Of a stretch of DNA of 64,000 nucleotides, positions 12,405 to 61,148 are shown piece by piece. The translations under genes and the position numbers were made by a program. This DNA comes from Minisyncoccota bacterium (GTDB taxonomy: Bacteria > Patescibacteriota > Minisyncoccia > Phycocordibacterales > BOKC01). The stretch is taken from assembly GCA_030583745.1 (NCBI GenBank), contig CP129473.1, forward strand, positions 76,551 through 140,550, read 5' to 3'. The notes under the pieces are model-generated. The model had not been told where the DNA came from, did no database searches, and saw only the letters and a list, made by a program, of their open reading frames with translations. Numbering within the stretch: position 1 is the stretch's first letter; each line of letters starts with the position of its first letter.

Positions 12405-12410
12405 AATCCC

Positions 12411-12445: not shown

Positions 12446-12517
12446 ATATAGTCCCTCGGGGCAGAGCCACGAGGTAATGTCGGAATCCTCCGCCAGCTGG
12501 CGAACTACGTCACTTAT

Positions 12518-12760: not shown

Positions 12761-12828
12761 ATACATATCCTGTAAAAAAAGCAACTCCAGACTCTTTTTA
12801 AACCTCAATTAGTATCGATAGTAGGATT

Positions 12829-12936
12829 TCAGAAGAGCTGGAAAATCAACCATGCCAAGGAGTAAACAGTGGCACCTATGGCAAATCCGGTGATCTTCCG
12901 CCTGATGATTTCTGATGCACTGTGTGGGGCGTTCAT
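12829..12936 (-). CDS. small hydrophobic peptide (35 aa) with strong RBS
   Basis: 'AAGAGGAGAGAGAA-ATG' gives MNAPHSASEIIRRKITGFAIGATVYSLAWLIFQLF, which has one predicted TM segment. It is below the 60-aa ORF-track cutoff. Confidence 0.4.
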   Translation of the reverse strand: MNAPHSASEIIRRKITGFAIGATVYSLAWLIFQLF

Positions 12937-13010
12937 TTCTCTCTCCTCTTTTATTTAAGGATGTCTTTTGAAGAACACTTGCGATATTGTATTTGAAATA
13001 TTAAAAATTT

Positions 13011-13062
13011 CAAGAGAAAAACCCGCCATCGTGTGCGCCTACAAGTCGCGAGCGATGGCGGG
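13011..13062 (-). terminator. intrinsic terminator (minus strand)
   Basis: The stem 'cccgccatcg…cgatggcggg' is followed on the minus strand by 'tttttctcttg'. Confidence 0.55.
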
Positions 13063-13192
13063 TTAAAGGGACGGGCCGAAGAATTACACTGGCGGAAAGG
13101 GGGATAGACTGGGGTGTTTTTGTCTTCCCCCGCCGTATCGTAGTGGGGGTGGAACGATATTCCGCCAGATTCTTTCGGCCCCTGGTTCCTCT

Positions 13193-13531
13193 TTAGTCTT
13201 CGACGACCCTCCTGACGACTCCATCACAGACCAGCCACTGTTTCGGCAGGTTTCGGTCGTCGTATAGTTCATCAATCCGAACCACCAAGAGGCGGCTTTC
13301 ATCTGCTTTGAATTTGAAAACCGCTACACTGTTTGGTTCAGACGGGAAGTCTCGGCCGTGTTTTTTCTCGTATTCCGAGACGGCCGAAAATGCTGCAGTA
13401 GCACTGTTTTTGACTGTCGGACTCTTTTCGATGAGGTTGATACTTTGCCAGATGACGTGGCCCATTGCCAGTATCAAAATAACGACAATGACGATGTTTA
13501 TCACGATCGTCGGGTTAGATTTTCTTCGCAT
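13193..13531 (-). CDS. membrane-anchored hypothetical protein (112 aa)
   Basis: A strong RBS 'GGGAGGCAAAAATG' precedes the start. An N-terminal TM segment 'IVINIVIVVILILAMGHVIW' is followed by a soluble domain. Confidence 0.55.
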   Translation of the reverse strand: MRRKSNPTIVINIVIVVILILAMGHVIWQSINLIEKSPTVKNSATAAFSAVSEYEKKHGRDFPSEPNSVAVFKFKADESRLLVVRIDELYDDRNLPKQWLVCDGVVRRVVED

Positions 13532-13600
13532 TTTTGCCTCCCGTTCGTGTGTGTTTGTGTACAGAAATCTACACTCTTTATATCATTTTCTAGAAAAAAG

Positions 13601-13658
13601 AAAAACCCGTCCTGGCGGGTGGGCTGGGGGAGATGGGCAAGTGCCCGACCAGGACGGG
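13601..13658 (-). terminator. intrinsic terminator after the DUF167 gene
   Basis: A 10-bp stem 'cccgtcctgg/ccaggacggg' is followed on the minus strand by 'tttttcttttttc'. Confidence 0.55.
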
Positions 13659-13787
13659 TTGAAATGGGGGGCTACGAACCGGGGAGTTGGAATGGGCGAC
13701 ACAGTCGAATTAGTGTGTCGTTTTCCCACGGCGCCCCCTTTCTAAAGTGATAATAACAAATTATGTTTTAAAGACAAGTGGGGTGTG

Positions 13788-14066
13788 TCAGAAACTGATC
13801 AAGACAATTTTGTTTGGTTGGCGCTGACCTTTTGTAATTTTTAGCTTTCTTATAGGTAGGTTTAGATGTTCAGCAAGGAGAGCTAGCATTTTTTTGTTGG
13901 CCAAATTATTTTCCGGTTTTTCTCTGACAAAACACTGAAATCTGCCTTCTGAAATTTTTTCCAACTTGTCTTTTTTTGCGTTGGTGAAAACCTTTACTTT
14001 AAGATGCATATGTTCACATTTTAACTCAATTTTGATATTATCTTTTGGTTCTTTGATATAAAACAT
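13788..14066 (-). CDS. DUF167/YggU-family protein
   Basis: 'KVKVFTNAKKDKLE…NNLANKKMLALLAEHLNLPIRKLKITKGQRQPNKIVLI' matches the YggU pattern (…GKAN.ali.fla…v.iv.G…K.v.i). Confidence 0.75.
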   Translation of the reverse strand: MFYIKEPKDNIKIELKCEHMHLKVKVFTNAKKDKLEKISEGRFQCFVREKPENNLANKKMLALLAEHLNLPIRKLKITKGQRQPNKIVLISF

Positions 14067-14141
14067 TCCGGCGTAGCTCAGTGGTAGAGCAAGCGACTGT
14101 TAATCGCTGGGTCGTAGGTTCGAATCCTACCGCCGGAGCCA
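14066..14141 (+). tRNA. tRNA-Asn (GUU)
   Basis: It folds as a cloverleaf with acceptor UCCGGCG/CGCCGGA, D-arm GCUC…GAGC, anticodon stem AGCGA/UCGCU with loop CUGUUAA (GUU), T-arm GUAGG-UUCGAAU-CCUAC, discriminator G and an encoded CCA. Confidence 0.9.
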
Positions 14142-14180
14142 ATAATAAAATCCTTCCCTTTTTGGGAGGGATTTTATTAT
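14141..14180 (+). terminator. long hairpin immediately 3' of tRNA-Asn
   Basis: 'aataataaaatccttccc-ttttt-gggagggattttattatt' forms an ~18-bp stem. Confidence 0.6.
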
Positions 14181-14390
14181 TGGCTCCCGAATTAAAACCT
14201 TCGCAAACTTTTGAAATTATTTTGCCAAATTTGATACACAAATCCAAAAAGCGAAATCTGAAATGATGCGCCCCGCCACTATTTTTCTGGGGTAAAGGAG
14301 GCGGGGCGATGGACTCGCCCGCGCGGAGGAGGGGTCTGGGGAGGAATCCGCGCGGGCTTCGGCTTTCTTTTTCGAAAGAATTGGCGGCTA
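14180..14390 (+). repeat. inverted repeat copy A (211 bp)
   Basis: It is ~97% identical (7 mismatches) to the reverse complement of 16305-16514. The internal hairpin 'gcgccccgccac…ggcggggcg' is present. Confidence 0.9.
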
Positions 14391-14468
14391 CAAATTGAAG
14401 AAAGAAGAAATTCATGTTAGTATAGTTGTGAGGGTTAAGTTCAACGCTCATACTTATACTATCATACT

Positions 14469-14681
14469 ATGGAAAGTAAGAACAACAGACAAATTGGGGA
14501 TAAAATAAAAGCCATGCGCACAAAGCAAGGATTGACGCAAGACGCTCTTGCGAGAAAATGCGATATTCCCTATACAACACTGACAAAGATTGAATCAAAT
14601 GTGATAAAAAAACCCTCAATTCAAACAGTTACCAAGATTGCCGAGGGGTTAGGAATAAGTATTGACGATTTAATTAAATAA
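14469..14681 (+). CDS. XRE-family HTH transcriptional regulator
   Basis: 'IGDKIKAMRTKQGLTQDALARKCDIPYTTLTKIESN' is an HTH_3 helix-turn-helix. Confidence 0.85.
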   Translation: MESKNNRQIGDKIKAMRTKQGLTQDALARKCDIPYTTLTKIESNVIKKPSIQTVTKIAEGLGISIDDLIK

Positions 14682-14682
14682 C

Positions 14683-15282
14683 ATGAATTCAATTTGTATT
14701 TTTGGAGACAGTACCGCTTGGGGTGCTTGGGATATGAAGAAAGGTGGTTGGGCAAATCGTCTATGGCTTTACGCTGGTAAGAAAACTGATGGTGAATGCG
14801 AAATTTACAATTTAAGTATTTCTGGTGGCACAACAGAAACGATACTTGAAAGGTTTGAGTCCGAAGCGAAAATCCGCGAAGCGGACGCCCTCATTTTCCA
14901 GTCCGGCGGCAATGATTCCTATCTAAAAGGCAAGAATGGCCCCAATCAAATTCCAGTTGATCAATTTAGGAAAAATCTGCAGGAAATAATCAGGAAAGCC
15001 AAAAATATCACACCAAACATAATTTTCATCGGCTTCAAAAATGTTGACGAGACAAAAACAATGCCGGTCTCATGGAAAGATATTTACTACGTCAACGCCG
15101 AAATCAAAAAGTACGACGAGATTATGAAAGATGTTTGCAAAGAAAACAACATTCCGTACTTGGATATTTTTGGCCTTCTCAAAAATGAGGATTTTGAGGA
15201 TGGTCTTCACCCCAATACTTTAGGGCATAAGAAAATTTTTGAGAAAGTGAAAAACTTTCTTGAAGAAAATAAATGGATATGA
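14683..15282 (+). CDS. SGNH/GDSL hydrolase
   Basis: Block I 'ICIFGDSTAWG', block III 'SGGND' and block V 'DGLHPN' are present. Confidence 0.85.
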   Translation: MNSICIFGDSTAWGAWDMKKGGWANRLWLYAGKKTDGECEIYNLSISGGTTETILERFESEAKIREADALIFQSGGNDSYLKGKNGPNQIPVDQFRKNLQEIIRKAKNITPNIIFIGFKNVDETKTMPVSWKDIYYVNAEIKKYDEIMKDVCKENNIPYLDIFGLLKNEDFEDGLHPNTLGHKKIFEKVKNFLEENKWI

Positions 15283-15602
15283 ATACGAAGAATGTAAAAT
15301 TTGTAGTTTTTGTTCCGCTTTCGCACGCTGATATCGTACGACAAGCGCTCGGCAAAGCCGGAGCAGGCAAAATCGGCAACTATGACTTCTGCTCATTTTC
15401 TTCTCGCGGAATCGGCCGCTTTCGCGGAAACAAAAAGACAAACCCCGCTATCGGCGAGGCAGGAAAATATGAGGTGGTAGAGGAAGAACGAATTGAGGCA
15501 GTCGTGCCACGAGAGATTTTGGGGGGAGTCATTGAGAAAGTGAAAAGCGTCCACCCATACGAAGAAGTCGCTTTTGATATTTACCCGCTAGAAAACTACT
15601 AG
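15273..15602 (+). CDS. NIF3-like small protein (C-terminal 'HPYEEVAFDIYPLEN' motif)
   Basis: The 'VHPYEEVAFDIYPLEN' terminus is typical of NIF3/YqfO-family C-termini. The protein is only 109 aa. Confidence 0.5.
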   Translation: MDMNTKNVKFVVFVPLSHADIVRQALGKAGAGKIGNYDFCSFSSRGIGRFRGNKKTNPAIGEAGKYEVVEEERIEAVVPREILGGVIEKVKSVHPYEEVAFDIYPLENY

Positions 15603-15605
15603 ATT

Positions 15606-16307
15606 ATGGCAACAATTCACAAAAAAGTTTGGCGAGAATACTTTGAGAAAATTATTTCCGGCAAGAAAAAGCTGGAGTTGCGCCTTGCCGATTTTGAGAT
15701 AAACGAGGGTGATACTTTGATTTTGGAGGAATGGGACAAAGATAAAAAAGAATATACTGGCAGAAAATTTGAAGCTGTTGCTACCTATATTCTCAAAACC
15801 AAAGACCAAACTTTTTGGTCGCAGGAGGAAGTAGAAAAGCATGGTTTTCAGATTATCCAATTTGAGCCGAAAGACAGCCTTGCTCAACGTCCGAAAGTTG
15901 GTGTTGGCGTGATGATTTTGAAGGAAAATAAAATTTTGCTAGGAAAGCGAAAAGGTTCGCATGGCGAGGGCGAGTATGCCTTCCCCGGCGGCCATTTGGA
16001 ATACATGGAATCTTTTGCGGATTGTGCTCGGCGCGAAGTGAATGAGGAATGTGGAATTGAGATTGAAAATATCCATTTCCAATATTTGGCGAATATCATA
16101 AAGTACGCGCCGAAGCACTATACGCATATCGGTCTTGTGGCAGATTGGAAAAGCGGTGAGCCAAAAGTTTTAGAACCGGAAAAATCAGAATCGTGGGGTT
16201 GGTATGAAATAGACAACTTGCCTCTACCGATTTTTGAGATGTGCAAGTTGGCTGTTCAATGCCACAAGACCGGAAAGAATTATTTGGATGTTTCCGATTT
16301 GAAATAG
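15606..16307 (+). CDS. ASCH-domain / NUDIX hydrolase fusion protein
   Basis: The N-terminal ASCH-like part is 'KVWREYFEKIISGKKKLELR'. The C-terminal Nudix box is 'GGHLEYMESFADCARREVNEECGIE'. Confidence 0.8.
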   Translation: MATIHKKVWREYFEKIISGKKKLELRLADFEINEGDTLILEEWDKDKKEYTGRKFEAVATYILKTKDQTFWSQEEVEKHGFQIIQFEPKDSLAQRPKVGVGVMILKENKILLGKRKGSHGEGEYAFPGGHLEYMESFADCARREVNEECGIEIENIHFQYLANIIKYAPKHYTHIGLVADWKSGEPKVLEPEKSESWGWYEIDNLPLPIFEMCKLAVQCHKTGKNYLDVSDLK

Positions 16308-16514
16308 CCGCCAATTCTTTCGAAAAAGAAAGCCGAAGCCCGCGCGGATTCCTCCCCAGACCCCTCCTCCGCGCGGACAAGTCCGTCGCCCCGCCTCCTT
16401 TGCCCCAGAAAAATAGTGGCGGGGCGCATCATTTCAGATTTCGCTTTTTAGATTTGTGTATCAGATTTGGCAAAATGATTTCAAAAGTTTGCGAAGGTTT
16501 TAATTCGGGAGCCA
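16305..16514 (-). repeat. inverted repeat copy B (210 bp)
   Basis: It is the reverse complement of copy A. Its outer end 'aattcgggagccaa' mimics the tRNA-Asn 3' end. Confidence 0.9.
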
Positions 16515-16618
16515 AGAAACTAGATACGAACTCATTTTTTGAATATGAGAGTGTTCGCTCCGCCTTCGCTAAAGCTATGACGGACACGCCGTCTAGCCCC
16601 GAGAGTGGCGGGGCTGTT

Positions 16619-16645
16619 GAGGCACAGCAAGGAAATTCCTTGATA
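16619..16645 (+). promoter_or_regulatory. 27-bp motif copy 1 with palindrome CAAGGA-AAT-TCCTTG
   Basis: 'gaggcacagcaaggaaattccttgata' repeats exactly at 17306-17332. Each copy sits ~50-80 bp upstream of a consensus promoter. Confidence 0.6.
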
Positions 16646-16696
16646 TTATGTCATACGACAGGTTGTTTGAGTTTCGAGATTCACGGTAACCCATAC

Positions 16697-16725
16697 TTGA
16701 CATAATCCATGTAATGGTGTATACT
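16697..16725 (+). promoter_or_regulatory. sigma-70 promoter (TTGACA-17-TATACT)
   Basis: This is a perfect -35 with 17-nt spacing and a near-consensus -10, upstream of the 16837 gene. An RBS 'AAAGGAG' precedes the ATG. Confidence 0.7.
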
Positions 16726-16836
16726 GGTATCAGATTCTTAGTCGTATGACTAAGTCGTCTCTTGCACCGAAAGGTGGGAGGTAAGGGAGTATGTGGGTTC
16801 TCCATTTAACCCATAGTTCAATGAAAGGAGTGTCGT

Positions 16837-17241
16837 ATGACACGCAATAGAATCATCAACGCCCCGTCCAAGTTCGACCTCAGCATCGCCTTCTTCGATC
16901 GGCCAAATCCCGAGCAGCTCGGTGGCCGTCGGTCGGTGACCTTCACCATCGAGGGTCCCAGCTGTCCGAACGGCCAGCGCCAGATCGAAGTCGTCATCAA
17001 CCACATCTCGTGGGAAGACGGCTCCGGTGAGAGCTGGTGCTTCGAGGGATACTGTAAGACCGATGTCGGCCAGCCTCAAAACTCGACTGCCGAGGTCAAG
17101 GGTTGGTTCCGGACTTCGGACCGCAAGGGTTGGATCAACATCGACGCGTCTGCTCAAAGCAATACGAGCGGGACTGCTGGTCAGGGTGACTCTGGCCTTC
17201 GCAACGTGATCGATCAGATCGCCACGCAGCGGAATCAGTAA
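16837..17241 (+). CDS. GC-rich hypothetical protein (134 aa)
   Basis: The gene is ~58% GC with its own promoter, RBS and terminator. No family was recognised. Confidence 0.6.
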   Translation: MTRNRIINAPSKFDLSIAFFDRPNPEQLGGRRSVTFTIEGPSCPNGQRQIEVVINHISWEDGSGESWCFEGYCKTDVGQPQNSTAEVKGWFRTSDRKGWINIDASAQSNTSGTAGQGDSGLRNVIDQIATQRNQ

Positions 17242-17256
17242 GCGTTGAGAAATTCA

Positions 17257-17296
17257 GGGCGACCAAGGCAATAGCCAAGGTCGCCCTTTCTCTTTA
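17257..17296 (+). terminator. intrinsic terminator
   Basis: The stem 'agggcgacc…ggtcgccct' is followed by 'ttctcttt'. Confidence 0.65.
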
Positions 17297-17305
17297 TTTA
17301 TACTC

Positions 17306-17332
17306 GAGGCACAGCAAGGAAATTCCTTGATA
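17306..17332 (+). promoter_or_regulatory. 27-bp motif copy 2
   Basis: It is identical to 16619-16645. Confidence 0.6.
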
Positions 17333-17359
17333 CGCTGTTATTGGGATATTACGCATTAC

Positions 17360-17388
17360 TTGACAGTATTCGTATAGTATGCTAGCAT
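17360..17388 (+). promoter_or_regulatory. sigma-70 promoter (TTGACA-17-TAGCAT)
   Basis: It lies upstream of the 17432 gene. An RBS 'AAGGAAAGGAG' precedes the ATG. Confidence 0.55.
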
Positions 17389-17431
17389 CTATATTAGACA
17401 CAAACACTGCAACCAAGGAAAGGAGTGATAA

Positions 17432-17671
17432 ATGCGTAAGTTCACACTTCACTGTCTCGGCGGAAAGACCGAGGGAGTCGAAGGGACAGACATCGCCGAC
17501 GCTTGCCGTAGGGCTGGCATCGGTGCGGGAGACCTTCCTGCTCTCGACTACTTCGAGGAGAAGGGTGAGAAGACCCAGGTCGCTGGTGCATCCAGTTCCT
17601 GTGGGTGCTGGTATCACGCAGAAGAAGGAACTGCGTGCCAGCACGACCTCGAGGTGGTTGGGCTCAAGTAG
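17432..17671 (+). CDS. GC-rich Cys-containing small protein (79 aa)
   Basis: The gene is ~60% GC. The product has 6 Cys, including 'SSSCGCWYH'. It has its own promoter, RBS and terminator. Confidence 0.55.
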   Translation: MRKFTLHCLGGKTEGVEGTDIADACRRAGIGAGDLPALDYFEEKGEKTQVAGASSSCGCWYHAEEGTACQHDLEVVGLK

Positions 17672-17678
17672 CTCTCTC

Positions 17679-17728
17679 CGCCCCGACAAAGAGATTCGTC
17701 TCTGCGTCAGGGGCGGATTTCTTTTTAT
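17679..17728 (+). terminator. intrinsic terminator
   Basis: The stem 'ccgccccgac…gtcaggggcgg' is followed by 'atttctttttat'. Confidence 0.65.
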
Positions 17729-53221: not shown

Positions 53222-53359
53222 TAAAAATTTTTGTTTAAGATGTGGTTTGCTAGTTGGCAAAGAGAGAAAAAGAGAAGGTTACTTTTTCATTCCCTCGCCA
53301 TACAGCGCGCCTTCGGCGCGCCCAGATTTTGCGCTTACTTCCGACCAAGTTTCTGAATG

Positions 53360-53603
53360 TGACGATATTATAGCCTTTGCTCGAACCTATTTCGAGTCAA
53401 AGACCGACTGACTTCGCACGCGCGGAGCGCGTGGTGGCTTGGAACTACATCGTACGCTCCGATCGCGTGGTGATGCCAACTCATGCTGCCAGCGCCTCGA
53501 CAAGCTCGGCGCTCCGCCCTCGCCCCGTTTCCGCTCTCCATGCTTTTTCTTTTTTCGCGGGGGGATTTTTTTAAAAATTGAATGGGCGGAAAACGGGGCT
53601 CGG
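53360..53603 (+). repeat. inverted repeat IR244 left copy
   Basis: It is 100% identical to the reverse complement of 59256-59498. The track ORFs 53377..53574 (+) and 59284..59481 (-) give identical 65-aa translations. Confidence 0.9.
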
Positions 53604-53604
53604 T

Positions 53605-54260
53605 CGGGCTTCACCTAAAAGGGTGAAGCGTGGCGTCATTCGTTCAGTGGTGCCTCGGATCTATTCTATCAATTTTGCGTTCATGGCTAAAGGGACGGCA
53701 CCCTCGGCATCCACCTCGGGCTATTTCCGCTAGGGCTACGAGCGCCTAGATGCCTAGGAGTGTCGCTTTTCCTCGCAAGTGCGCCTTGCTAGGCGCTTGC
53801 TCGGGCGACACGCAGTTTGGGGGAAGGAAGGAATCCTTCCCCCAGCTTCGGGCTCCTCCTCGCAGTGGTCGTTCGGAGTGTACGGTGCCGTACAGATAAC
53901 AAGGTACGTCGTGAGTTTCTCTCTCGCTTTGACGTGCCTTCGGAGTCCGCCTTCGCACAACCCCCATCCTCGTTTTCAATATTTCTTTCGTGGTGTCGCT
54001 TCCGCTACGATACTTTGTTTTGCAATATAACGTCGGCGCTCGTCCTTTAGCCCTGGACGCTCCTAGCGGAAATAGCCCGAGGGCTCTGCCTTATGTGCTT
54101 GCCCCAGGCCGTGTTAGTACACGGCTCCCACCCGTGCGCGCACAAACCCCGCCCGCAAGCGGGCGGGACTCCCTGCAAAATGCAAGTGCCCTCGGGAGGA
54201 TTCGAACCTCCAAGATCGGGGTAGAGGCCCGACAGTTTATCCATTAGCTTACGAGGGCAA
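53605..54260. ncRNA. candidate large structured RNA (GC-rich, ORF-free, extensive self-complementarity); identity unknown
   Basis: The region is ~58% GC. The long-range pair 'cctcgggctatttccgctagg' (53722-53742) faces its reverse complement at 54061-54081. Many local hairpins are present (gggggaagg…ccttccccc, gtacggtgccgtac, cccgcccgcaagcgggcggg). The strand of transcription is uncertain. Confidence 0.35.
54185..54256 (-). other. tRNA-like element (T-arm GGAGG-UUCGAAU-CCUCC and 7-bp acceptor GCCCUCG/CGAGGGC; irregular D/anticodon arms; no CCA)
   Basis: On the minus strand it reads 'gccctcgtaagctaatggataaactgtcgggcctctaccccgatcttggaggttcgaatcctcccgagggca'. The anticodon stem 'ucggg/cccga' has loop 'ccucuac' (C at position 33). 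The D-arm is poorly paired, so it is likely a pseudo-tRNA or a structural mimic. Confidence 0.4.
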
Positions 54261-54345
54261 AGAGAAAGAAGCGCATAAATGCGCTGGGGGAATTCTTTAT
54301 CTTCTGTGCCTCGTATTAAACATTACTGTTTACATTAACATTTTT

Positions 54346-54373
54346 TTGAAAAAATAAAAACAAGAGTTATAAT
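54346..54373 (+). promoter_or_regulatory. sigma-70 promoter (TTGAAA-16-TATAAT)
   Basis: It lies upstream of a ~170-nt GC-rich leader that precedes the YjzC-like ORF. Confidence 0.5.
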
Positions 54374-54544
54374 TCAACAATTGAAGTCCTTTGAAATGCT
54401 GGCGGGATAGTCGGAGCGCCCTTTTCTGCATCTTAGGGGATCATCTCACCTCCTCCCCCCTGGTCAGTGCTTTTTCGAGCATTGACTCGGGGGCGCGTAG
54501 CAGGTCGAGCCCCTGGATTACCAGAATTAAGCGAAACGATTGTT

Positions 54545-54706
54545 ATGACTAAAGTCAAAACAGGCGGTACTGCTAAAAAATCTGGACAGTATAGAGTCGA
54601 GGGTACAAAAACCCTCGAGATTACATTGTCTAGAGGCGATCGCGTTCCACCTCATGGAGGAAAGGCGAGAACCTTTGTGCTCGTTGATAAGACGAAACAC
54701 AAATAG
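54545..54706 (+). CDS. YjzC-like small protein (53 aa)
   Basis: 'VKTGGTAKKSGQYRVEGTKTLEITLSRGDRVPPHGGKARTFVLVDK' follows the YjzC pattern (K.G..AP..G.Y.e.G…i.L..GD.fP…..W). The start is at the internal ATG and the RBS is weak. Confidence 0.4.
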   Translation: MTKVKTGGTAKKSGQYRVEGTKTLEITLSRGDRVPPHGGKARTFVLVDKTKHK

Positions 54707-54750
54707 TAAGTAACCGCTAAACTTTTCCTGCCAGCATTTCAGAGGATTTT

Positions 54751-56238
54751 CTATTTTATTCTCAAAAATGGTTTGCTAAGGGTTAAGCGATAATCTCCAA
54801 AAAACTCTTTTATCGTCTTTCTGGTCCTGTGTTTTTCAATGTATTGATCTAAATAAGTGAGTAGTTCTTTTTCAACCTCGACGAAGCTGTCTGGGCAAAT
54901 AGATTTGTAATGATTGACCCAACCGCCAGCAAAAGATTTGTATGCCTTAATTACTTCTCCAAAATCAAATTTTTTGACGATACCAACATTTACAATTTCG
55001 CGCTCAAAAGTGTTTTTAAATTCCTGGATTGCCTCCTTGGGAATGAAAAGACTATTTTTCGAAATACCAACCCCAAGGAATTCGAAACTATTTCCATCAA
55101 TATTTAATAACTGTGTTTTACTACCAACCTCAAGTGGGTGTAATTTCAATTTAAGTTTCTCGCTTCCTGATTTAATTAACTCATATACATTATTTGCTTG
55201 ACCTTCACTTTTTGAAAGAACGATCATGTCATCAAGGTATCTGAAACCCTTGCACCCTTTTACTTTGTTAGGAATTTTATCAAGTGGTAAGGCGTAATAA
55301 CTTGAGAGAAATGGTGAGTATGAAAGACCCTGCGGAATGCCAGTGGTCTTTAGTTTAAGGTGTCCAAATGTTCCATGAAAATCTGAATCTGCCTCAATTT
55401 TATTTTCTATGGATACCTTTATTAATCGAAATAATCTGCGTTGATCTTTGCCTCTGAATTTTTTACTCAGTTGCTTTAATAAAATACTTCTATCAATGGA
55501 TGAGAAAAAATCTTTAAAATCTAATTTTAAAATATAGCGAGCCTCGCCATTTTTTAAAGCTCTCTGTATTTCATTGAGTATTCGCTTACATTCACTGGTG
55601 TCTTTTTCTTTCTTAATACCAAGTCCAAGTGCACCGTATTCCTCTAAGGCTGGTTTTAGAATATTACAAACTTTTGGAAATACGGCTGATAAAACGATCC
55701 GGTCTTTTGAAGAAGGGATAAGAAGGGGTCTATATTTTCCGTTAGATTTTCTTATTTTCAAACCAGAATATGGTAAGAAAGAAAATCGCCGTAATTCTTT
55801 CGAGTAGAATTCGGCTACACTTATCTTCTTTATGTATTTCCCTAGATCATTTAGCTCCCGCTCCTCTATTCCTGAAAATCTTTTTAAATCTGAAAAGTTT
55901 TTGCGAAATACTTTACGTCTCAAACTCTTAAATGCACTTGCGATTTGTTCTTGAGTTAAAAGCAGTTGCAGGTTCACATAATTTTCTATGATAGACGACC
56001 TCACTGGACTCGAACCAGTGCATGTTCCGAAAGATCGTGCTCCCTTAAGGGTAGAGGCTACTGCCGAAGCGATAGCCTCACCATTAAGGGTACTACTTTT
56101 CAGTCCGTTCGTCAACCGAAGTTGATAGACTTTCCTAATCGGTAGGTGGCGACCTGCAAGAGTAAAGTTTATGGCGTGCATAATTCTTTTCCCTCGCAGG
56201 AAGTCGTGAGCCGAAGCCCACTGTAAAATATTATACAT
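54751..56238 (-). CDS. group-II-intron-like reverse transcriptase with maturase/X (thumb) domain, not embedded in an intron ribozyme (G2L-type)
   Basis: RT motifs 1-7 are present: 'NGKYRPLLIPSSKDRIV', 'LKLDFKDFFSSI', 'GIPQGLSYSPFL', 'FRYLDDMIVL' and 'LHPLEV…'. The X-domain 'AGGWVNHYKS' is also present. No D1-D3 or D5/D6 intron RNA is found; flanks are occupied by other genes. The first ~85 codons of the track ORF overlap structured RNA (see findings). Confidence 0.8.
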   Translation of the reverse strand: MYNILQWASAHDFLRGKRIMHAINFTLAGRHLPIRKVYQLRLTNGLKSSTLNGEAIASAVASTLKGARSFGTCTGSSPVRSSIIENYVNLQLLLTQEQIASAFKSLRRKVFRKNFSDLKRFSGIEERELNDLGKYIKKISVAEFYSKELRRFSFLPYSGLKIRKSNGKYRPLLIPSSKDRIVLSAVFPKVCNILKPALEEYGALGLGIKKEKDTSECKRILNEIQRALKNGEARYILKLDFKDFFSSIDRSILLKQLSKKFRGKDQRRLFRLIKVSIENKIEADSDFHGTFGHLKLKTTGIPQGLSYSPFLSSYYALPLDKIPNKVKGCKGFRYLDDMIVLSKSEGQANNVYELIKSGSEKLKLKLHPLEVGSKTQLLNIDGNSFEFLGVGISKNSLFIPKEAIQEFKNTFEREIVNVGIVKKFDFGEVIKAYKSFAGGWVNHYKSICPDSFVEVEKELLTYLDQYIEKHRTRKTIKEFFGDYRLTLSKPFLRIK

Positions 56239-56303
56239 TAACCGGCTTATTCAGCAATAGAAAATCTGTGGATAACTCGCTGTAGTTTTCGGTATTCTTT
56301 CGG

Positions 56304-56325
56304 TTATAATATGCTTATATTATAA
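56304..56325. promoter_or_regulatory. palindrome TTATAATAT-gctt-ATATTATAA in the divergent RT / LexA-MTase promoter region
   Basis: It has 9-bp inverted arms and lies 20 bp upstream of the LexA-MTase ATG. It is a candidate operator. Confidence 0.4.
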
Positions 56326-56345
56326 CATATAACTTTTTATAAATT

Positions 56346-57914
56346 ATGAGATCTCTTACCATAAGACAAAAGCAAATATTCGATTTCATTGACTCCTATA
56401 TAGCGAAGAAAGGCATTTCTCCCACAATAGACGAGATAAGGAAAAAGTTTAAATTAAAATCAGTTTCTACTATTCATCAGCATATAAACGCTTTAGTTGA
56501 AAAAGGTTATTTAGAAAAAGATGAAAAATCCGTCCGAGGTCTTAAAATAAAAGGAGAAACTGACTCTATAAGAATTCCCGTTGTTGGAATGATTGCCGCC
56601 GGACAGCCGATTGAAGCAATAGAGAATATTGAGAGACATATCGGTGTAAGCCGAAGCGTAGTGAAAAATAGCGATGATCATTATGCCTTGCGAGTAACTG
56701 GAGAGAGTATGATTGATGAAGGTATTTTTGATGGAGATATTGTTATCATAAAAAAGCAGTCAGTGGCTGAAAACGGACAAACTGTAGTAGCAATAATCGA
56801 TGACAATGAGGCTACGTTGAAAAAAATATATAGGGAGAAAAACAGATTTAAACTTGAACCGGCAAATCAGAGCATGCTCCCTTTTTATCGCAAAGAGGTG
56901 GAAGTGCGAGGTGTCGTTGTGCAGGTTATCAGAAATATTGATAATCGTCCCGAGGATAAAAAAATTCAGAAAAATGGCTATAAGACCGTTGACTTGTTTG
57001 CTGGTGTAGGAGGAATACGTCTCGGATTTGAAAAAGTCGGTTTTGAAACTGTGTTTGCAAATGATTTTGAACCGCAATGCAAGGACACTTATGATCTTAA
57101 TTTTGACACCTCAAAGCTCGTCGTAGAAGACATAAGAAAAATTGGCATCGAAGATTTGCCTGAATTTGATTTTCTCCTCGGGGGTTTCCCGTGCCAGGCG
57201 TTCTCTATTGCCGGATATAGGCAGGGATTTGGAGATGAGAAAGGTCGCGGAAATTTATTTTTTGACATAGCAAGAATGTTAGAAGCAAGAAAGCCGACAG
57301 GATTTCTTTTAGAGAATGTAAAAAATCTAATGGGCCATGACAAAGGCAGGACTTTCAAAATTATTAAAGAAACTCTTGAGGGTCTAGGTTATCATGTCCA
57401 TGCAAAGGTTCTCAACACTATGGAGTACGGAAACATTCCGCAAAATCGCGAGAGAATTTATATTGTTGGATTTAGGGACAAAAAGCATTTTGAAAGGTTT
57501 GAATATCCTAAGCCCGTTAAACTAGCTGTAAGCGTTACCGACATGCTAGAGGACGAGGTGGATAAAAAATATTATTACAATGGAAAACCCCTATTCCCAA
57601 GGTTAAAAGACGATGTTAAAAAAGAAGGAACGGTTTATCAGTGGAGGAGGAAATATGTCCGGGAAAACAAAAGCGGAGTATGCCCAACGCTTACCGCAAA
57701 TATGGGAACCGGCGGGCATAATGTTCCGATTATCAAAGATAAAAAAGGAATAAGAAAACTAACCCCTTTAGAGTGTTTTAGAATTCAGGGATTTCCAAAA
57801 CACTACAAGCTTCCAGAATTGGCTGACTCTGCACTGTACAAGCAGGCAGGAAATTCGGTTTCTGTGCCAGTAATAGAAGCCGTGGCAAAAGAGATGCTGA
57901 ACGCCGTTAGTTAG
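56346..57914 (+). CDS. LexA repressor (HTH + S24 peptidase) fused in-frame to DNA (cytosine-5)-methyltransferase
   Basis: Residues 1-~200 align with E. coli LexA. This includes the cleavage-site 'IAAGQP', catalytic Ser 'TGESM' and Lys 'TLKKIY', and 'GVVVQVIRNI'. Residues ~205-522 carry C5-MTase motif I 'FAGVGGIRLGF', motif IV 'GGFPCQAFS' and motif VI 'LLENVKNL'. Confidence 0.85.
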   Translation: MRSLTIRQKQIFDFIDSYIAKKGISPTIDEIRKKFKLKSVSTIHQHINALVEKGYLEKDEKSVRGLKIKGETDSIRIPVVGMIAAGQPIEAIENIERHIGVSRSVVKNSDDHYALRVTGESMIDEGIFDGDIVIIKKQSVAENGQTVVAIIDDNEATLKKIYREKNRFKLEPANQSMLPFYRKEVEVRGVVVQVIRNIDNRPEDKKIQKNGYKTVDLFAGVGGIRLGFEKVGFETVFANDFEPQCKDTYDLNFDTSKLVVEDIRKIGIEDLPEFDFLLGGFPCQAFSIAGYRQGFGDEKGRGNLFFDIARMLEARKPTGFLLENVKNLMGHDKGRTFKIIKETLEGLGYHVHAKVLNTMEYGNIPQNRERIYIVGFRDKKHFERFEYPKPVKLAVSVTDMLEDEVDKKYYYNGKPLFPRLKDDVKKEGTVYQWRRKYVRENKSGVCPTLTANMGTGGHNVPIIKDKKGIRKLTPLECFRIQGFPKHYKLPELADSALYKQAGNSVSVPVIEAVAKEMLNAVS

Positions 57915-58956
57915 TTGATATCTTATCAAACAGATCCACAAGATCTTGCGTGGAGTCATTGCCAAATTTCTCAAGCGTGTATTTTAGCGCAATGTTCTCA
58001 TTCCATTTAGAGCTCCGGTCAAATTTATTGAGGTTGATGACAATGTTACCTTTTTGAACAGGAATTCCACTAATTCTAATATCATCTGTAGAATGTATAT
58101 ACAAAGAGCCTTTGTTTTTCTTTAGAATTGTTATCTCTGTTTTGTTTTCACTTTCAATAGCGAACGGAAGACAAACATATCCTTTATCGTATGTATAGGT
58201 AAACCTATTGTTTCCGTCCAAAACCATTTTCTCTTTAAGATTTGCCCCGCGAGGATCTTTATTTTCAGCGCCGGCAAAATAGTACGGGCTCACATCCTTT
58301 TTGCAAAGCGTGAAATTATTTTGAACCTCGCCTTTTGTGTAAATGCCAATTAAGCGCATTGTGCCAACTTTTGCGGTTTTAGAAACAGTAGAATGAGGAA
58401 TAATTTGTTTGTCTTTGTCGCTTTCAATAAATTCGTCGCTCATTTTAAGCTCCTCAAAATATTTGTCAGCAAATGTTTCTTCTTCAAACAGCGATGTCAA
58501 ATAATCTCCCTCCAGATCGGACTCAATAAATGCATAATAATCATCAATCATTTGCGGTTCCCGTACCCCAAGTAACGCCTGATCTTTCCGCACAACTTTA
58601 ACCTCGATCCTCGGCATGCCATCAATATTTGTCCAGGTTCCGTTATTGTATTTTACAAAAGGAATAGTCTTTCCGTCGGAAGTTTGAAGTCCGAGAATAT
58701 CAGGCGCGTTCTTATCAGAGTCGTTAGCATATATAAAATAATCTGAAATAACTTTATATTTGTTATCCTCCAGCAATTTTTCAAAGATAACTGTTTCTGC
58801 GATTTTATTGAACCACCTTTCAATATAACCGCCGATTAAATCTCTTTTAGCAGAAGTGCCCTGGCGATGAAGCGGGTCGCCTTTAAACTTCATTAGAATG
58901 AAGTAAACAATTTTTCTAAGATCATCTTTTGTTATTTCTATTTCCGGGTATTTCAT
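57907..58956 (-). CDS. putative type II restriction endonuclease (PD-(D/E)xK)
   Basis: It converges on and overlaps the MTase by 8 bp. It lies directly downstream of a C-protein gene. A candidate 'PD…(E)VK' motif is 'APDILGL…RIEVKVV'. Confidence 0.55.
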   Translation of the reverse strand: MKYPEIEITKDDLRKIVYFILMKFKGDPLHRQGTSAKRDLIGGYIERWFNKIAETVIFEKLLEDNKYKVISDYFIYANDSDKNAPDILGLQTSDGKTIPFVKYNNGTWTNIDGMPRIEVKVVRKDQALLGVREPQMIDDYYAFIESDLEGDYLTSLFEEETFADKYFEELKMSDEFIESDKDKQIIPHSTVSKTAKVGTMRLIGIYTKGEVQNNFTLCKKDVSPYYFAGAENKDPRGANLKEKMVLDGNNRFTYTYDKGYVCLPFAIESENKTEITILKKNKGSLYIHSTDDIRISGIPVQKGNIVINLNKFDRSSKWNENIALKYTLEKFGNDSTQDLVDLFDKISTN

Positions 58957-58958
58957 AA

Positions 58959-59171
58959 TTATTTGAATCGCAAAAGCTCATCAGGATCCACATCCAGAGC
59001 GTCTGATATCTTTTTTATATTCTCAACAGAAACATTGCGCTCGCCTCGTTCAATATCGCTCATGTATGTTCTGTGCAGTTTCGCTTTTGTAGCGAGTTTT
59101 TCCTGCGAAATACCCGCCTCCAAGCGAAGTTCTTTAATTTTCTGTCCTAATTGTTTCTTAATATTTGACAT
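58959..59171 (-). CDS. controller (C) protein, XRE-family HTH
   Basis: The 70-aa product contains 'LGQKIKELRLEAGISQEKLATKAKLHRTYMSDIERGERNVS'. The stop abuts the downstream REase start. A C-box lies upstream. Confidence 0.75.
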   Translation of the reverse strand: MSNIKKQLGQKIKELRLEAGISQEKLATKAKLHRTYMSDIERGERNVSVENIKKISDALDVDPDELLRFK

Positions 59172-59228
59172 GCAAAGTCTGGTAACTTATTGACTACATC
59201 ATATCTTTTTGAGTAAAATAGGGCTACA

Positions 59229-59249
59229 GACTATAAGTGACGTATAGTC
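59229..59249. promoter_or_regulatory. C-box-like palindrome GACTATA-N7-TATAGTC
   Basis: It lies ~58 bp upstream of the C-protein start and matches the GACT…AGTC C-box consensus. Confidence 0.55.
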
Positions 59250-59255
59250 TAAGCC

Positions 59256-59498
59256 CGAGCCCCGTTTTCCGCCCATTCAATTTTTAAAAAAATCCCCCCG
59301 CGAAAAAAGAAAAAGCATGGAGAGCGGAAACGGGGCGAGGGCGGAGCGCCGAGCTTGTCGAGGCGCTGGCAGCATGAGTTGGCATCACCACGCGATCGGA
59401 GCGTACGATGTAGTTCCAAGCCACCACGCGCTCCGCGCGTGCGAAGTCAGTCGGTCTTTGACTCGAAATAGGTTCGAGCAAAGGCTATAATATCGTCA
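59256..59498 (-). repeat. inverted repeat IR244 right copy
   Basis: It is the perfect reverse complement of 53360-53603. Confidence 0.9.
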
Positions 59499-59578
59499 CA
59501 ATTTAGAACTTTTCCCAATGCGCGTCGCTCCGCGACGAATTCGGACGGAACTGGCGCGCCGAAGCGCGCGGATTTGTC
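59496..59578 (+). repeat. inverted repeat IR83 left copy
   Basis: It is the perfect reverse complement of 60994-61076. It contains the GCGCGC-UUCG-GCGCGC hairpin and lies in the recombinase promoter region. Confidence 0.9.
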
Positions 59579-59604
59579 TCTTGTTTCGTATCTAAAAAAA
59601 ATCT

Positions 59605-61092
59605 ATGTCCAAACCAAAATATTTTCTTTACGCTCGCAAATCGACGGAAGATGATGACAAGCAGGTCATGTCTATCGAGGCTCAACTTTTTGAATTGCGA
59701 GAGTTTGCACGTAAAGAAAATCTTGAAATTGTTGAGACATTTCAAGAGTCGAAAAGCGCAAAGACTCCGGGCAGGCCTCTGTTCAACAAGATGATGGCGA
59801 AGATAGAGGAAATGGAGAATGTCGGCATTCTTGCGTGGCATCCGGATCGTCTCGCGAGAAATAGCGTGGACGGCGGTCGCATCATCTATCTTGTTGACCA
59901 GAAGAAAATCACGTCTTTGCGCTTTCCGACATTTTGGTTTGAACCCACCCCGCAGGGGCTCTTTATGTTGCAAGTGGCGTTCGGTCAATCGAAGTATTAC
60001 TCCGACAACTTGGTGGAGAACACCAAGCGCGGGATGCGCCAAAAAGTGCGGCGAGGCGAGTGGCTCACAAAAGCGCCGTTCGGGTACGTGAACAATCCGA
60101 AGACGAGGAATATCGAACCGCACCCGACTCATTCCAAAATCATCGTCCGCGCTTTTGAGGAGTATGCGAAAAAATCGCACACGCTGAAATCACTCGCCGA
60201 TTTTTTGGCGCTTCACGGAGTAAGTACTTCCAAAGGTACGCCACTTGGCAAAGCTTCCATCAAACGAATGCTGACCAACAGGGCATATTTGGGATTTGTG
60301 AAGCATAAGGAGGAATGGTTTGACGGAAGCTTTGCGCCAATTCTTTCCCCGAAATTGTTTGAAGCCGTGCAAAAGGTATTAGCGACAAGAGAACGCCCGC
60401 GCAAAACAAAGACCGGCCACAATTTTCCTTTCGTTGGACTTTTTCGTTGCGGAGAGTGCGGGAGCATGATCACTGCGCAGTGGGCGACGGGGAAATCAGG
60501 AGGACGGTATCGGTACTATCGGTGCACGAAAAAGAAAGGAAATTGTGACCAAGGGTATATGCGCGAGGAATCTCTTGTCGCAGACGTAAAGGAACGGCTC
60601 CAAACAATTTCGCTTTGCGATGAGGATACTGATTATATGCTCAAGTGCGTTCTGCAATTCGAGCAAGAGGAAAACCGCTCATCGCAAAGCCGCGTTCAAA
60701 ATCTTTCTTTCAAACTCAAAGCAAGCGAGGAGAAGCTTGACCGTCTTGTCTCGGCCTTTATTGATGGTGACATTCCAAAGGAAATTTATCTCGCCAAGAA
60801 GGACAAGCTGATGCGGGAATCACTTGCTTTGCGGGAACAGCGGAAAGATTTTGAACGCGAGGGAAAGAATTGGGTCGAACCCCTACGGGAGTGGATTTTA
60901 GATACGAAACAAGCCAATTTTTTGAGCTCATCCGCTGATTTTCACAAAATCAGCTCCTTCGTCAAAAAAGTTGGAACGAACCCTACGGTTCGTGACAAAT
61001 CCGCGCGCTTCGGCGCGCCAGTTCCGTCCGAATTCGTCGCGGAGCGACGCGCATTGGGAAAAGTTCTAAATTGTGACCCTATCGGGATTTGA
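59605..61092 (+). CDS. large serine recombinase (resolvase/integrase)
   Basis: The N-terminal resolvase domain 'YARKSTEDDDKQVMSIEAQ' carries the catalytic Ser. A recombinase domain and zinc ribbon 'CGECGSM…YYRCTKKKGNC' follow, with a C-terminal coiled coil. Confidence 0.9.
   Translation: MSKPKYFLYARKSTEDDDKQVMSIEAQLFELREFARKENLEIVETFQESKSAKTPGRPLFNKMMAKIEEMENVGILAWHPDRLARNSVDGGRIIYLVDQKKITSLRFPTFWFEPTPQGLFMLQVAFGQSKYYSDNLVENTKRGMRQKVRRGEWLTKAPFGYVNNPKTRNIEPHPTHSKIIVRAFEEYAKKSHTLKSLADFLALHGVSTSKGTPLGKASIKRMLTNRAYLGFVKHKEEWFDGSFAPILSPKLFEAVQKVLATRERPRKTKTGHNFPFVGLFRCGECGSMITAQWATGKSGGRYRYYRCTKKKGNCDQGYMREESLVADVKERLQTISLCDEDTDYMLKCVLQFEQEENRSSQSRVQNLSFKLKASEEKLDRLVSAFIDGDIPKEIYLAKKDKLMRESLALREQRKDFEREGKNWVEPLREWILDTKQANFLSSSADFHKISSFVKKVGTNPTVRDKSARFGAPVPSEFVAERRALGKVLNCDPIGI
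60994..61076 (-). repeat. inverted repeat IR83 right copy
   Basis: It overlaps the last ~30 codons of the recombinase and ends 3 nt inside the tRNA-Glu 3' end. Confidence 0.9.
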
Positions 61093-61148
61093 ACCCGAGT
61101 TTTCGCCTTGAGAAGGCGACGTCCTAGACCAGACTAGACGATAGGGCC
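61074..61148 (-). tRNA. tRNA-Glu (CUC)
   Basis: On the minus strand it reads GGCCCUA-UC-GUC…GAC-G-UCGCC-UUCUCAA-GGCGA-AAAC-UCGGG-UUCAAAU-CCCGA-UAGGGUC-A. Acceptor stem is 7 bp (one G·U), D-stem 3 bp. Anticodon loop is UUCUCAA, giving anticodon CUC. No CCA is encoded. Confidence 0.75.

Follow-up and report, generated by a model that had tools for sequence, protein, structure and literature searches.

The two inverted repeats that follow a tRNA-Asn gene in the window, i.e. the whole 64,000-nt stretch of DNA analysed here, delimit a genuine element that is non-autonomous and belongs to an undescribed variant of the integrative elements moved by large serine recombinases (LSR). The cassette enclosed by these repeats is probably the cargo module of an LSR-moved element family that targets tRNA 3' ends in Patescibacteria. 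The repeats themselves, called arms below, are apparently the conserved flanks of the cargo in a widespread, undescribed family of serine-recombinase mobile islands in the ultra-small bacteria of the CPR/Patescibacteria. Integrase-type mobility of this family is suggested by the anatomy of its junctions and by the polymorphism observed between strains.

A repeat search of the window placed the arms at 14177-14390 and 16305-16518, with a length of 214 nt each, 96% complementarity and 1914 nt between them. The BLAST E-value of this pair is 6.5e-103, which is far beyond chance, and the ~210-bp inverted repeats first noticed by the sequence-only reading are thus confirmed. A base-by-base comparison reveals 8 mismatches, of which 7 are C<->T exchanges on one strand. 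The eighth (14179/16516) falls outside the true repeat, which begins at TTGGCTCC (14180). On the basis of the repeat search, this comparison and alignments, arm A extends from 14180 to 14390 on the + strand, and arm B, its inverted copy, from 16305 to 16515 on the - strand. An assembly artefact was ruled out by the 7-8 positions at which the arms differ and by the presence of every junction of the cassette in independent Logan assemblies from other samples (L001, L002, L011, L014, L017, L018).

The tRNA-Asn(GTT) gene (14067..14141, + strand), detected by ARAGORN and Rfam, carries at its 3' end the sequence GGAGCCAA (14135-14142), which is the att core of the family. This core opens a palindromic terminator-like hairpin (14135..14187, + strand) whose own 24-nt arms (14135-14158 and 14164-14187) run from the tRNA core to its complement TTGGCTCC, the first 8 nt of arm A. 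The same core-hairpin-core' layout, with another hairpin sequence, is also present in L078, L045 and L047. The pairing of the tRNA 3' end with the start of arm A had been proposed from the letters alone, as had the imitation of this 3' end by the outer end of arm B; both stand, and the latter end (16508-16515) is the att core GGAGCCAA. The core is therefore found at three places of the locus (tRNA-Asn end, arm A and arm B), and these fit the family plan. The first belongs to an intact tRNA-Asn gene that still has its trailer, the second lies in an attR-like junction, on the opposite strand, and the third in an attP-like junction. When read on the minus strand, the outer junction of arm A has the order arm, GGAGCCAA, tRNA trailer, and it reads as an almost perfect attR when compared with the trailer of this tRNA. 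Arm B is followed by a remnant (16516..16615, + strand; GAAACTAGATACGAACTCATTTTTTGAATATGAGAG...) of the repeat named Z, which lies on the recombinase side in complete elements, and forms with it an attP-type junction, arm-core-Z. The homology to complete elements stops after ~55-100 nt, and no recombinase gene lies beyond. The attL sequences of complete elements (tRNA-Asn...GGAGCCA/AGAAACTAGATACGAACTC...) match the DNA right of arm B, and the same core and Z sequence is observed at the attL of at least 21 of them. A short core that att junctions share with the target gene, as expected of an LSR integrative element, is present at the window locus. The second inverted-repeat pair of the family, Z/Z', is absent from this locus, where a single ~100-nt copy of Z lies right of arm B. 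The comparison of the tRNA-Asn locus with sister strains (~98% identical) shows a sequence that differs right after the tRNA 3' end, over the 51 nt visible, with an attL-like junction directly at tRNA-Asn instead. No excised circle junction or empty site was recovered.

The repeat is not unique to this locus. A 24-nt arm core was found in 86 stretches from diverse CPR/Patescibacteria genomes (species-representative, GTDB), and about 20 of these stretches contain +/- pairs 1.5-3.7 kb apart, usually one inverted pair. At least 191 relatives of the recombinase were counted in one metagenome scan. The LSR of the family, a protein of 490-540 aa with Resolvase, Recombinase and Zn_ribbon domains, is encoded 33-311 nt outside the arm adjoining the XRE gene and reads away from that arm. 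In at least 21 loci, the LSR gene and tRNA-Asn overlap at the 3' end of the former. In the complete members (L105, L135, L043 and a second island of the window, 53347-61148), the tRNA 3' end is followed by a core and Z, then by the LSR gene, Z', a second core and an arm; XRE and the cargo come next, before the other arm, a third core and host DNA with the displaced tRNA trailer. The cargo, which begins with the XRE gene, is variable. Both inverted-repeat pairs are present in ~24 of the 26 metagenome loci with enough flank, meeting at the core either end to end or with an overlap of 5-9 nt, also where the arm sequence belongs to another family. Three-junction alignments of L043 and of the second island of the window resolve an attL, an attR and a hybrid internal site. 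The two pairs of inverted repeats, Z/Z' around the LSR gene and the arms around the cargo, arise because an integrated element has, besides attL and attR, an inverted attP-like junction in its interior. The identity of the repeats is higher within an element (median ~99-100%) than between elements (90-97%). L135 has a copy of the window cassette that is 88-92% identical, with an intact LSR gene, and forms a tandem array with an arm-core-Z junction between its elements. No description of this double inverted-repeat LSR architecture was found in a literature search.

Adjacency to a tRNA is not a defining feature of the arms, since it concerns only ~10 of 115 arms, at various tRNAs; this low number is explained by the end of the element, the tRNA end or the other, that happens to be visible. 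A viral origin was rejected, the arm being absent from IMG/VR, where one LSR, 60% identical, was found. A palindromic central dinucleotide (GC) is not the general cause of the inverted design, as the tRNA-Glu-type cores (TGGTGA, GTCAC) have no such dinucleotide.

One of these cores belongs to the second island of the window (53347..61148, without assigned strand), a complete element of the family design recognized by its arms, Z'/Z repeat, LSR, tRNA-Glu and shared core. Its arms (53347-53603 and 59255-59511) are 257 nt long, its Z'/Z repeat occupies 59490-59578 and 60994-61082, its large serine recombinase gene is at 59605-61092 and its tRNA-Glu gene at 61073-61148 (- strand). The core GTCAC is common to its three junctions. 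The junction alignments thus substantiate the earlier idea that both tRNA-linked islands of the window follow one design. No similarity was found among the three inverted-repeat families of the window.

These data support the proposal that the repeats mark a non-autonomous mobile element, and go against its MITE-like version, in which the 214-bp repeats would be the terminal inverted repeats (TIR) of a unit mobilized by a DDE transposase whose gene lies elsewhere. The cassette does share with MITEs and TIR-bounded transposons long, terminal-looking inverted repeats around a unit devoid of transposase or other mobility enzyme of its own, as well as a genomic context that differs between genomes. 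Such an origin is nevertheless extremely improbable. The GTDB genomes contain essentially one arm pair, with at most ~2 arms each, and a single pair exists in the 64-kb window, instead of many copies. No target-site duplication was found around the arms: they border on the tRNA trailer at one end and on Z or host DNA at the other, without direct duplication beyond the inverted core. The unit carries a four-gene cargo, its outer boundaries are tRNA-derived recombinase cores common to the attL of LSR elements, and the enzyme with which it is consistently associated is an LSR. A single DDE gene was seen, of the IS630 type in L036, and it is a nested insertion in the cargo.

The sequence-only reading had also stated that no transposase or integrase is present inside the cassette. 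This is true between the arms, where no recombinase gene was detected, and incomplete for the family, whose LSR sits just outside one arm and is missing at the window locus. Indeed, no LSR gene or remnant was found within 11-20 kb of the window cassette, neither right of arm B nor left of the tRNA, whereas L105, L135 and the second island of the window all encode one. The window copy is non-autonomous because this recombinase has been lost. In the favoured history, the element would have integrated into a mirror-image attB offered on the other strand by the palindromic terminator; the LSR module would have been deleted later, and the cargo may then have been inverted by recombination between the arms. 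Arms of 200 nt could allow RecA-type inversion as well as gene conversion, by which they would be kept alike. Integration into the reverse strand is one of at least two histories that fit, as tandem arrays such as L135 also yield an arm-core-Z junction. For the same reason, the side on which Z lies is no clear sign that the window cargo is flipped against its relatives, a tandem array also placing Z beside the distal arm. The cassette could then be the remnant of such an array, in which the cargo still has its first orientation towards tRNA-Asn, the recombinase module that once separated the tRNA from arm A has collapsed to the 38-nt hairpin, and the Z right of arm B derives from an older neighbour element. 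The array of L135 has exactly this junction, short palindromes of recognizable Z/Z' sequence separate core and arm in L061 and L056, and canonical elements, like the window copy, have XRE towards the tRNA. This second history is considered rather unlikely: the window hairpin (TAATAAAATCCTTCCC...) has no similarity to the Z starts, in which GATACGAAC is always present, and resembles instead an ordinary A/T-flanked terminator, like the different hairpin of L078, while the arm A junction matches attR against the tRNA's own trailer.

A point against the main reading is the double inverted-repeat design of the complete elements itself, as LSR integrases are not known to require or retain an inverted attP within the element. 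It is possible, if doubtful, that this layout is functional, a 'flip-flop' design similar to that of the yeast 2-micron plasmid, in which the internal inverted attP and the conserved arm hairpins, a new structured motif, would serve replication, transfer or recombination control, and the duplication would be more than passive. If excised, an element of the family would be, like this plasmid with its FLP/FRT system in 599-bp inverted repeats, a circle of two unique segments (recombinase and cargo) between two inverted repeats, each holding a recombination site and much longer than it, with four or two possible isomers. The 2-micron plasmid differs by its tyrosine recombinase and its eukaryotic host, in which it replicates and partitions by functions of its own; the present family showed neither a free circle nor replication genes.

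The arms had further been suggested to drive inversion. This is plausible, as flipped cargo or recombinase modules occur in some short-read assemblies (L012; L119 compared with L110 and L123), and unproven, since orientation across perfect repeats longer than k is ambiguous in such assemblies. In L012, the cassette stands in the opposite orientation beside tRNA-Asn, and a mis-traversal of the graph may explain it, because the stretches over which the two arms are identical (38, 47 and 72 nt) all reach at least k-1 of the Logan assemblies. Arm variants do not locate the crossover point of this flip, L014 suggesting that both arms are alike in that population. A programmed switch is not suggested by the data. 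It would imply that the arms are recombination sites of the Gin/Cin/Pin type and that each flip connects the XRE operon to promoters outside or cuts it off from them. The resemblance to the invertible segments of Mu (G/gin) and P1 (C/cin, with 0.6-kb inverted repeats) is real: a serine recombinase gene lies just outside a few-kb segment flanked by inverted repeats that are kept near-identical, flipped isomers exist in some assemblies, and the core is placed at the outer repeat ends, as is the crossover core of the long repeats in the P1 C segment. A switch of this kind is quite unlikely here, however. The XRE promoter is inside the unique segment and the arms are identical, so that a flip leaves coding and promoter junctions unchanged, with no obvious effect on the regulatory context. 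The orientation is strongly biased rather than close to 50:50: XRE is next to the LSR in all 7 genome loci that could be scored, and the LSR and tRNA genes converge in most loci. The enzyme of the family is a large integrase-type serine recombinase of 490-540 aa with repeats joined to tRNA att junctions, and not a small (~190-aa) Fis/enhancer-dependent invertase like Gin, Cin or Hin; the window copy has no recombinase at all, and the evidence for flipping is itself open to assembly ambiguity.

A second property of the arms is their internal structure. The outer, att-proximal module of arm A (~14180-14262) may represent the att half-site region of the recombinase. It is followed by hairpin 1 (14269-14308), hairpin 2 (14317-14357, with the loop GGAGGGGTCTGGGGAGGAA at 14328-14346) and a T-rich tract (14358-14372); in arm B, the hairpins are at 16387-16426 and 16338-16378, respectively. 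Both have covarying stems and conserved loops across the family. Hairpin 1 shows compensatory changes at 7 pairs, and the loop of hairpin 2 is closed by at least six unrelated stems in 140 of 142 instances, although part of hairpin 2 was the search key, which makes its invariance within the main family partly a matter of ascertainment. Both window arms contain the family loop GGAGGGG-N-GGGGAGGAA. The inner part of the arm is at least 90% conserved, while the XRE and LSR proteins of the family drop to 30-40% identity. A conserved small ORF (SD-like AAGGAGG and ATG at 14309) in the arm was rejected, most copies having ACG and the conservation being nucleotide-level, not codon-like. Together with the T-rich tract, the two hairpins and this contrast in conservation could mean that each arm is first of all the gene of a small structured RNA, or of an RNA that regulates the cassette, and that its inverted duplication is secondary. 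This is unlikely. The arms have no Rfam match at the gathering threshold or at E<=1, the search returning only tRNAs, no promoter-like site was found in them, and they are always tied to the att core and the LSR architecture. Moreover, the hairpins have no consistent orientation relative to the genes, the loop of hairpin 2 occurring in either orientation to the arm axis across arm families, and their wobble pairs are without strand bias (17 G.U versus 14 A.C); on these two grounds, an RNA role is not supported over a DNA role. The inner part of the arm is better viewed as a putative cis element, which may act as a transcription insulator or terminator, or as an RNA or single-stranded-DNA signal.

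Among the closest known systems are the LSR integrative elements and prophages (phiC31, Bxb1, A118, TP901-1, SCCmec with Ccr, and the excision elements of XisF and SpoIVCA). They have in common with the present family a recombinase with Resolvase, Recombinase and zinc-ribbon domains (the best NCBIfam similarities of the family LSR are CcrB and XisF, below their cut-offs), a short core common to attL, attR and attP-type junctions, and a recombinase gene adjoining one end of the element. The present elements differ in that they are tiny (~4-8 kb), without phage or conjugation genes, keep an internal inverted attP-like junction, and bracket the LSR gene and the cargo each by inverted repeats of 100-370 nt. 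They also target tRNA 3' ends, a common choice of tyrosine integrases but an unusual one among serine integrases. In this they resemble the islands of tyrosine integrases (P4-like islands, Prochlorococcus tycheposons), which are likewise small cargo islands at tRNA 3' ends, with tandem arrays at one tRNA, as in L135, strain-variable content, and cargo enriched in defence-like functions and accessory enzymes. The present family is distinguished from these by its serine recombinase, its long repeats, which are inverted and not direct, and its core of 5-8 nt.

The CPR/Patescibacteria have tiny genomes, and gene exchange among them is little understood. The present finding points to a compact, abundant vehicle that brings variable accessory and defence-like cargo into tRNA genes, and to the use of a serine integrase in a layout that has not been described for enzymes of this type, combining three cores and two near-identical pairs of inverted repeats. 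It explains both tRNA-linked islands of the window, the tRNA-Asn cassette being a decaying, recombinase-less copy. The family could supply new, natural tRNA-directed serine integrases with defined att sites, a test case for the tolerance and homogenization of long inverted repeats in minimal genomes, and a new conserved hairpin motif whose function is testable.

The four genes attributed earlier to the cassette are all supported by domain and structure-database matches. The XRE-family HTH regulator (14469..14681, + strand; Pfam HTH_3) starts 78 nt inside arm A and reads inward, into the cargo. It is the one cargo gene conserved across the family: its homologues adjoin an arm in 29 loci, in the same arrangement, and the window gene shares 91-93% identity with its counterparts in L123 and L135. 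The other three genes, all on the + strand, are variable cargo. An SGNH/GDSL hydrolase (14683..15282), recognized by a domain match, precedes a 109-aa protein (15273..15602) that matches only the inserted domain of NIF3 (PDB 2gx8, residues 163-262, E=3e-32) and is thus a stand-alone NIF3 cap-domain protein; this cargo recurs in L036, L082, L085 and L076. The last gene encodes an ASCH(DUF3850)-NUDIX fusion (15606..16307), the stop codon of which overlaps the inner end of arm B, and its copy in L135 is 88-90% identical at the nucleotide level.

The long inverted repeats that the sequence-only reading had placed beside tRNA-Asn are real. A repeat search of the window delimits two arms of 214 nt at 14177-14390 (arm A) and 16305-16518 (arm B), which are 96% complementary, 1914 nt apart and matched by BLAST with E=6.5e-103. 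Each junction of the cassette recurs in Logan contigs of several independent samples (L001, L002, L011, L014, L017, L018), and these contigs end at the points at which a genuine repeat forces a k=31 graph to split (L001 spans 14361-16334 and L002 starts at 16486). Such independent junctions and break points rule out an assembly artefact. The tRNA-Asn(GTT) gene (14067-14141) is followed by a palindromic hairpin (14135-14158/14164-14187), whose 5' arm opens with the tRNA 3' end, GGAGCCAA, and whose 3' arm closes with the 8 nt that begin arm A, TTGGCTCC; the start of arm A does pair with the tRNA 3' end, as had been proposed. The outer end of arm B, said to imitate the tRNA 3' end, terminates in the same GGAGCCAA. 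All four cargo genes previously listed were identified between the arms: an XRE/HTH_3 gene, a GDSL/SGNH hydrolase, a 109-aa protein equivalent to the inserted domain of NIF3 (2gx8 residues 163-262, E=3e-32) and a DUF3850(ASCH)-Nudix fusion. Seven of the eight mismatches between the arms (14218-14318 versus 16377-16477) are C<->T on the same strand and none is G<->A, a bias with a chance probability of about 1/64 that could reflect strand-biased deamination or the history of gene conversion.

The arms belong to a widespread family. A 24-nt piece, GGAGGAATCCGCGCGGGCTTCGGC, has exact matches in at least 86 stretches of species-representative genomes and, among the matches listed, all are from Patescibacteria/CPR and cover many classes. 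About 20 of these listed stretches carry two copies, always in the order + then - and 1.5-3.7 kb apart; diverged partner arms were added by profile search. The edge of the arm is sharp, falling between ...TTGGCTC and CCGAATTAAAACC..., and the DNA enclosed is highly variable, encoding ADP-ribosyltransferase-like proteins, a LexA-methyltransferase fusion, an Mrr-like nuclease, an OLD/AAA-type ATPase, dehydrogenases, HIT, Nudix and SGNH proteins, and others. An XRE gene of 65-73 aa lies about 85 nt inside one arm at 29 loci among the matches listed. The suggestion of a MITE-like repeat was not borne out, because the species-representative genomes matched have essentially one pair of arms each. 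Only about 10 of 115 arms among the matches listed adjoin a tRNA, and the arm sequence is absent from the IMG/VR viral genomes. These scans of genomes and metagenomes were single searches that started from one 24-mer and one recombinase subfamily, with the ascertainment bias that this entails, and genome loci were taken as 8-kb chunks that split some elements. At one locus (L036, 1916-2941), an IS630-type DDE transposase is nested within the cargo. Another (L076, 890-2650) is a further decayed copy, with a single arm and Nudix, NIF3-cap and CYTH cargo nearly identical to that of the window, then host genes.

Clustering of ORFs revealed a serine recombinase with the full large-serine-recombinase (LSR) domain set, located just outside the XRE-side arm and directed away from it. 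A metagenome scan with the recombinase linked to the arm class of the window provided 80 loci from at least 191 relatives; at least 21 of them have the recombinase 3' end overlapping the 3' end of tRNA-Asn, and tRNA-Gln is overlapped in a more distant subgroup. Two pairs of inverted repeats are present in about 24 of the approximately 26 loci with sufficient upstream sequence. One pair (190-370 nt, 90-100% identical) flanks 1.8-3.5 kb of cargo, the other (100-170 nt, mostly 99-100% identical) flanks the recombinase, and the two abut or share 5-9 nt. The layout extends to loci whose arm sequence bears no relation to that of the window arm. Alignments of the junctions within a relative's locus (L043) and within the second island of the window (53347-61148; tRNA-Glu, core GTCAC, recombinase 59605-61092) each yield tRNA-core-Z (attL), where Z is a repeat bracketing the recombinase, arm-core-host (attR), and an internal inverted arm-core-Z hybrid resembling attP. 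The second island is a complete member of this two-pair family with the same junction logic, and the common design attributed to both tRNA-linked islands is thereby upheld. Its arm is homologous (79%) to that of the second of two elements that stand in tandem at a single tRNA-Asn in L135 (7641-20562). In this array, the tRNA-proximal element has arms of the second-island type (241 nt) and 6.1 kb of cargo. The distal element has an intact recombinase and is near-identical to the cassette of the window. Recombinase ORFs (L105, 10001-11470) extend beyond the att core into tRNA sequence read antisense, making the last ~25 residues dependent on the junction partner of the core. The L105 C-terminus reads ...FLAPRAGFEPATYRL..., and a remnant ORF of the window (16429-16587, minus strand) reads ...FLAPELKPSQTF... 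and runs into arm B. At about 14 metagenome loci (including L116, L118, L134, L137, L139-L141, L145, L156 and L160), a tRNA-like 3' half (...GGATTCGAACC...TTACAC...) without ARAGORN call replaces the intact tRNA after the recombinase; such loci may represent junctions within tandem arrays or another class of target.

The window cassette retains three cores. At tRNA-Asn, B-GGAGCCAA-TAATAAAATCCTTCCC... is an intact target with its own trailer. Outward from arm A, arm-GGAGCCAA-TAATAAAATCCCTCCC... is an attR-type junction on the opposite strand, an arrangement that the palindromic terminator makes possible. At arm B, arm-GGAGCCAA-GAAACTAGATACGAACTC... is of attP type, and the DNA that follows is the same Z found after tRNA-Asn in complete elements, its homology ending after ~55-100 nt. 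No recombinase remnant was found at this locus, and the L135 cassette, 88-92% identical in XRE, Nudix and arms, has its recombinase intact; the window copy would be a non-autonomous derivative. In the proposed comparison with relatives, sister strains with ~98% identical flanks show, over the 51 nt visible, an attL-like junction right after tRNA-Asn in place of the hairpin and arm, and the locus is therefore polymorphic between strains. No excision product was seen, and each mechanistic step beyond this junction anatomy is one that we infer. The element may have integrated into the mirror image of attB that the palindromic terminator offers on its opposite strand and then lost its recombinase, which predicts that XRE originally stood beside arm B, as in contig L012. 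A tandem array like that of L135 would also fit, the hairpin then being what is left of the collapsed recombinase module of the element itself. We favour the mirror-image integration because the hairpin, lacking any Z motif, resembles a native terminator, and a related locus (L078) shows the same core-hairpin design with a different hairpin.

Flipped states are suggestive of inversion, even if orientation is formally ambiguous in assemblies, the repeats being longer than the assembler's k. Contig L012 joins the Nudix end via an arm to tRNA-Asn, the opposite cargo state; a cargo segment common to L110 and L119 differs between them in both orientation and position, which are opposite; in L123 the recombinase points at the arm, beyond which come XRE and then a distal arm flanked by host DNA; and the recombinase 3' end abuts an arm at at least five loci. 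A programmed on/off switch is argued against by the strong skew of cargo and recombinase orientation to one state and by the fact that a flip leaves every junction sequence unchanged. The same two points favour occasional homologous recombination and gene conversion. The latter would explain why repeats are ~99-100% identical within an element versus 90-97% between elements, and the 96% identity of the window arms fits a copy no longer homogenised.

This family shares its enzyme and junction logic with serine-integrase elements, and a recombinase beside an inverted-repeat-flanked segment with Gin/Cin systems; its predicted circle resembles the yeast 2-micron plasmid, and its tRNA targeting and tandem arrays are like those of tyrosine-integrase islands and tycheposons. 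None of these systems, however, unites an LSR and the targeting of tRNA 3' ends with both an internal inverted attP and two pairs of long homogenised repeats, and a full-text literature search retrieved no description of the two-pair LSR architecture. We rate the tRNA-Asn cassette as a decayed member of a serine-integrase family with an apparently unreported combination of features.

The arms also hold what appears, from covariation, to be a new structured motif. They are modular: an outer module (~80 nt) tracks the recombinase and its att specificity, and an inner one (~130 nt) is at least 90% conserved, against 30-40% identity in the XRE and recombinase proteins of the element. Hairpin 1 (14269-14308 in arm A) shows compensatory changes at seven pairs, among them replacement of the entire stem around a retained loop, and 97.8% of its cells are paired versus 33-53% in slid controls. 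Hairpin 2 (14317-14357) has as its loop a purine-rich mirror repeat, GGAGGGG-N-GGGGAGGAA. Over all loci, a stem closes 140 of the 142 instances of this loop, with at least six unrelated stem sequences and both orientations relative to the arm axis. An Rfam search of the arms gave no match, no promoter-like site was found in them and their hairpins show no wobble-pair strand bias, so that the motif may act as RNA or as DNA, our first guesses being an insulator/terminator role or a single-strand signal. Several arm families (window 14233-14241; arms of L159, L164, L175 and L181) conserve a DnaA-box-like 9-mer (TGATACACA / TAATCCACA; one mismatch to the consensus TTATNCACA) in their outer module; single in each arm, it may be a chance occurrence.

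Several GC-rich blocks lie elsewhere in the window. The second-island cargo starts with an ORF-poor block (53604-54180, 51-56% GC) containing a 21-nt inverted repeat (53714-53734/54062-54082) and followed by tRNA-Arg(TCT) (54186-54258); the block and the adjoining arm are 79% conserved in the second L135 element (11404-12133). The block has no Rfam match at the gathering threshold and is a candidate non-coding RNA. A ~1.3-kb region (12400-13750), at ~50% GC versus ~39% for the genome, has only overlapping short ORFs on both strands and no Rfam match; it is ~98% conserved in L004-L013 from sister strains and may represent either a foreign insert in decay or an RNA gene. To the right of arm B (16519-17880, ~50% GC), there are two tandem modules; in each, the perfect palindrome CAAGGAAATTCCTTG and a strong sigma-70-like promoter (16697-16725, TTGACA-17-TATACT; 17360-17388) accompany a small ORF (16837-17241, 134 aa; 17432-17671, 79 aa) that matches nothing in Pfam or NCBIfam.
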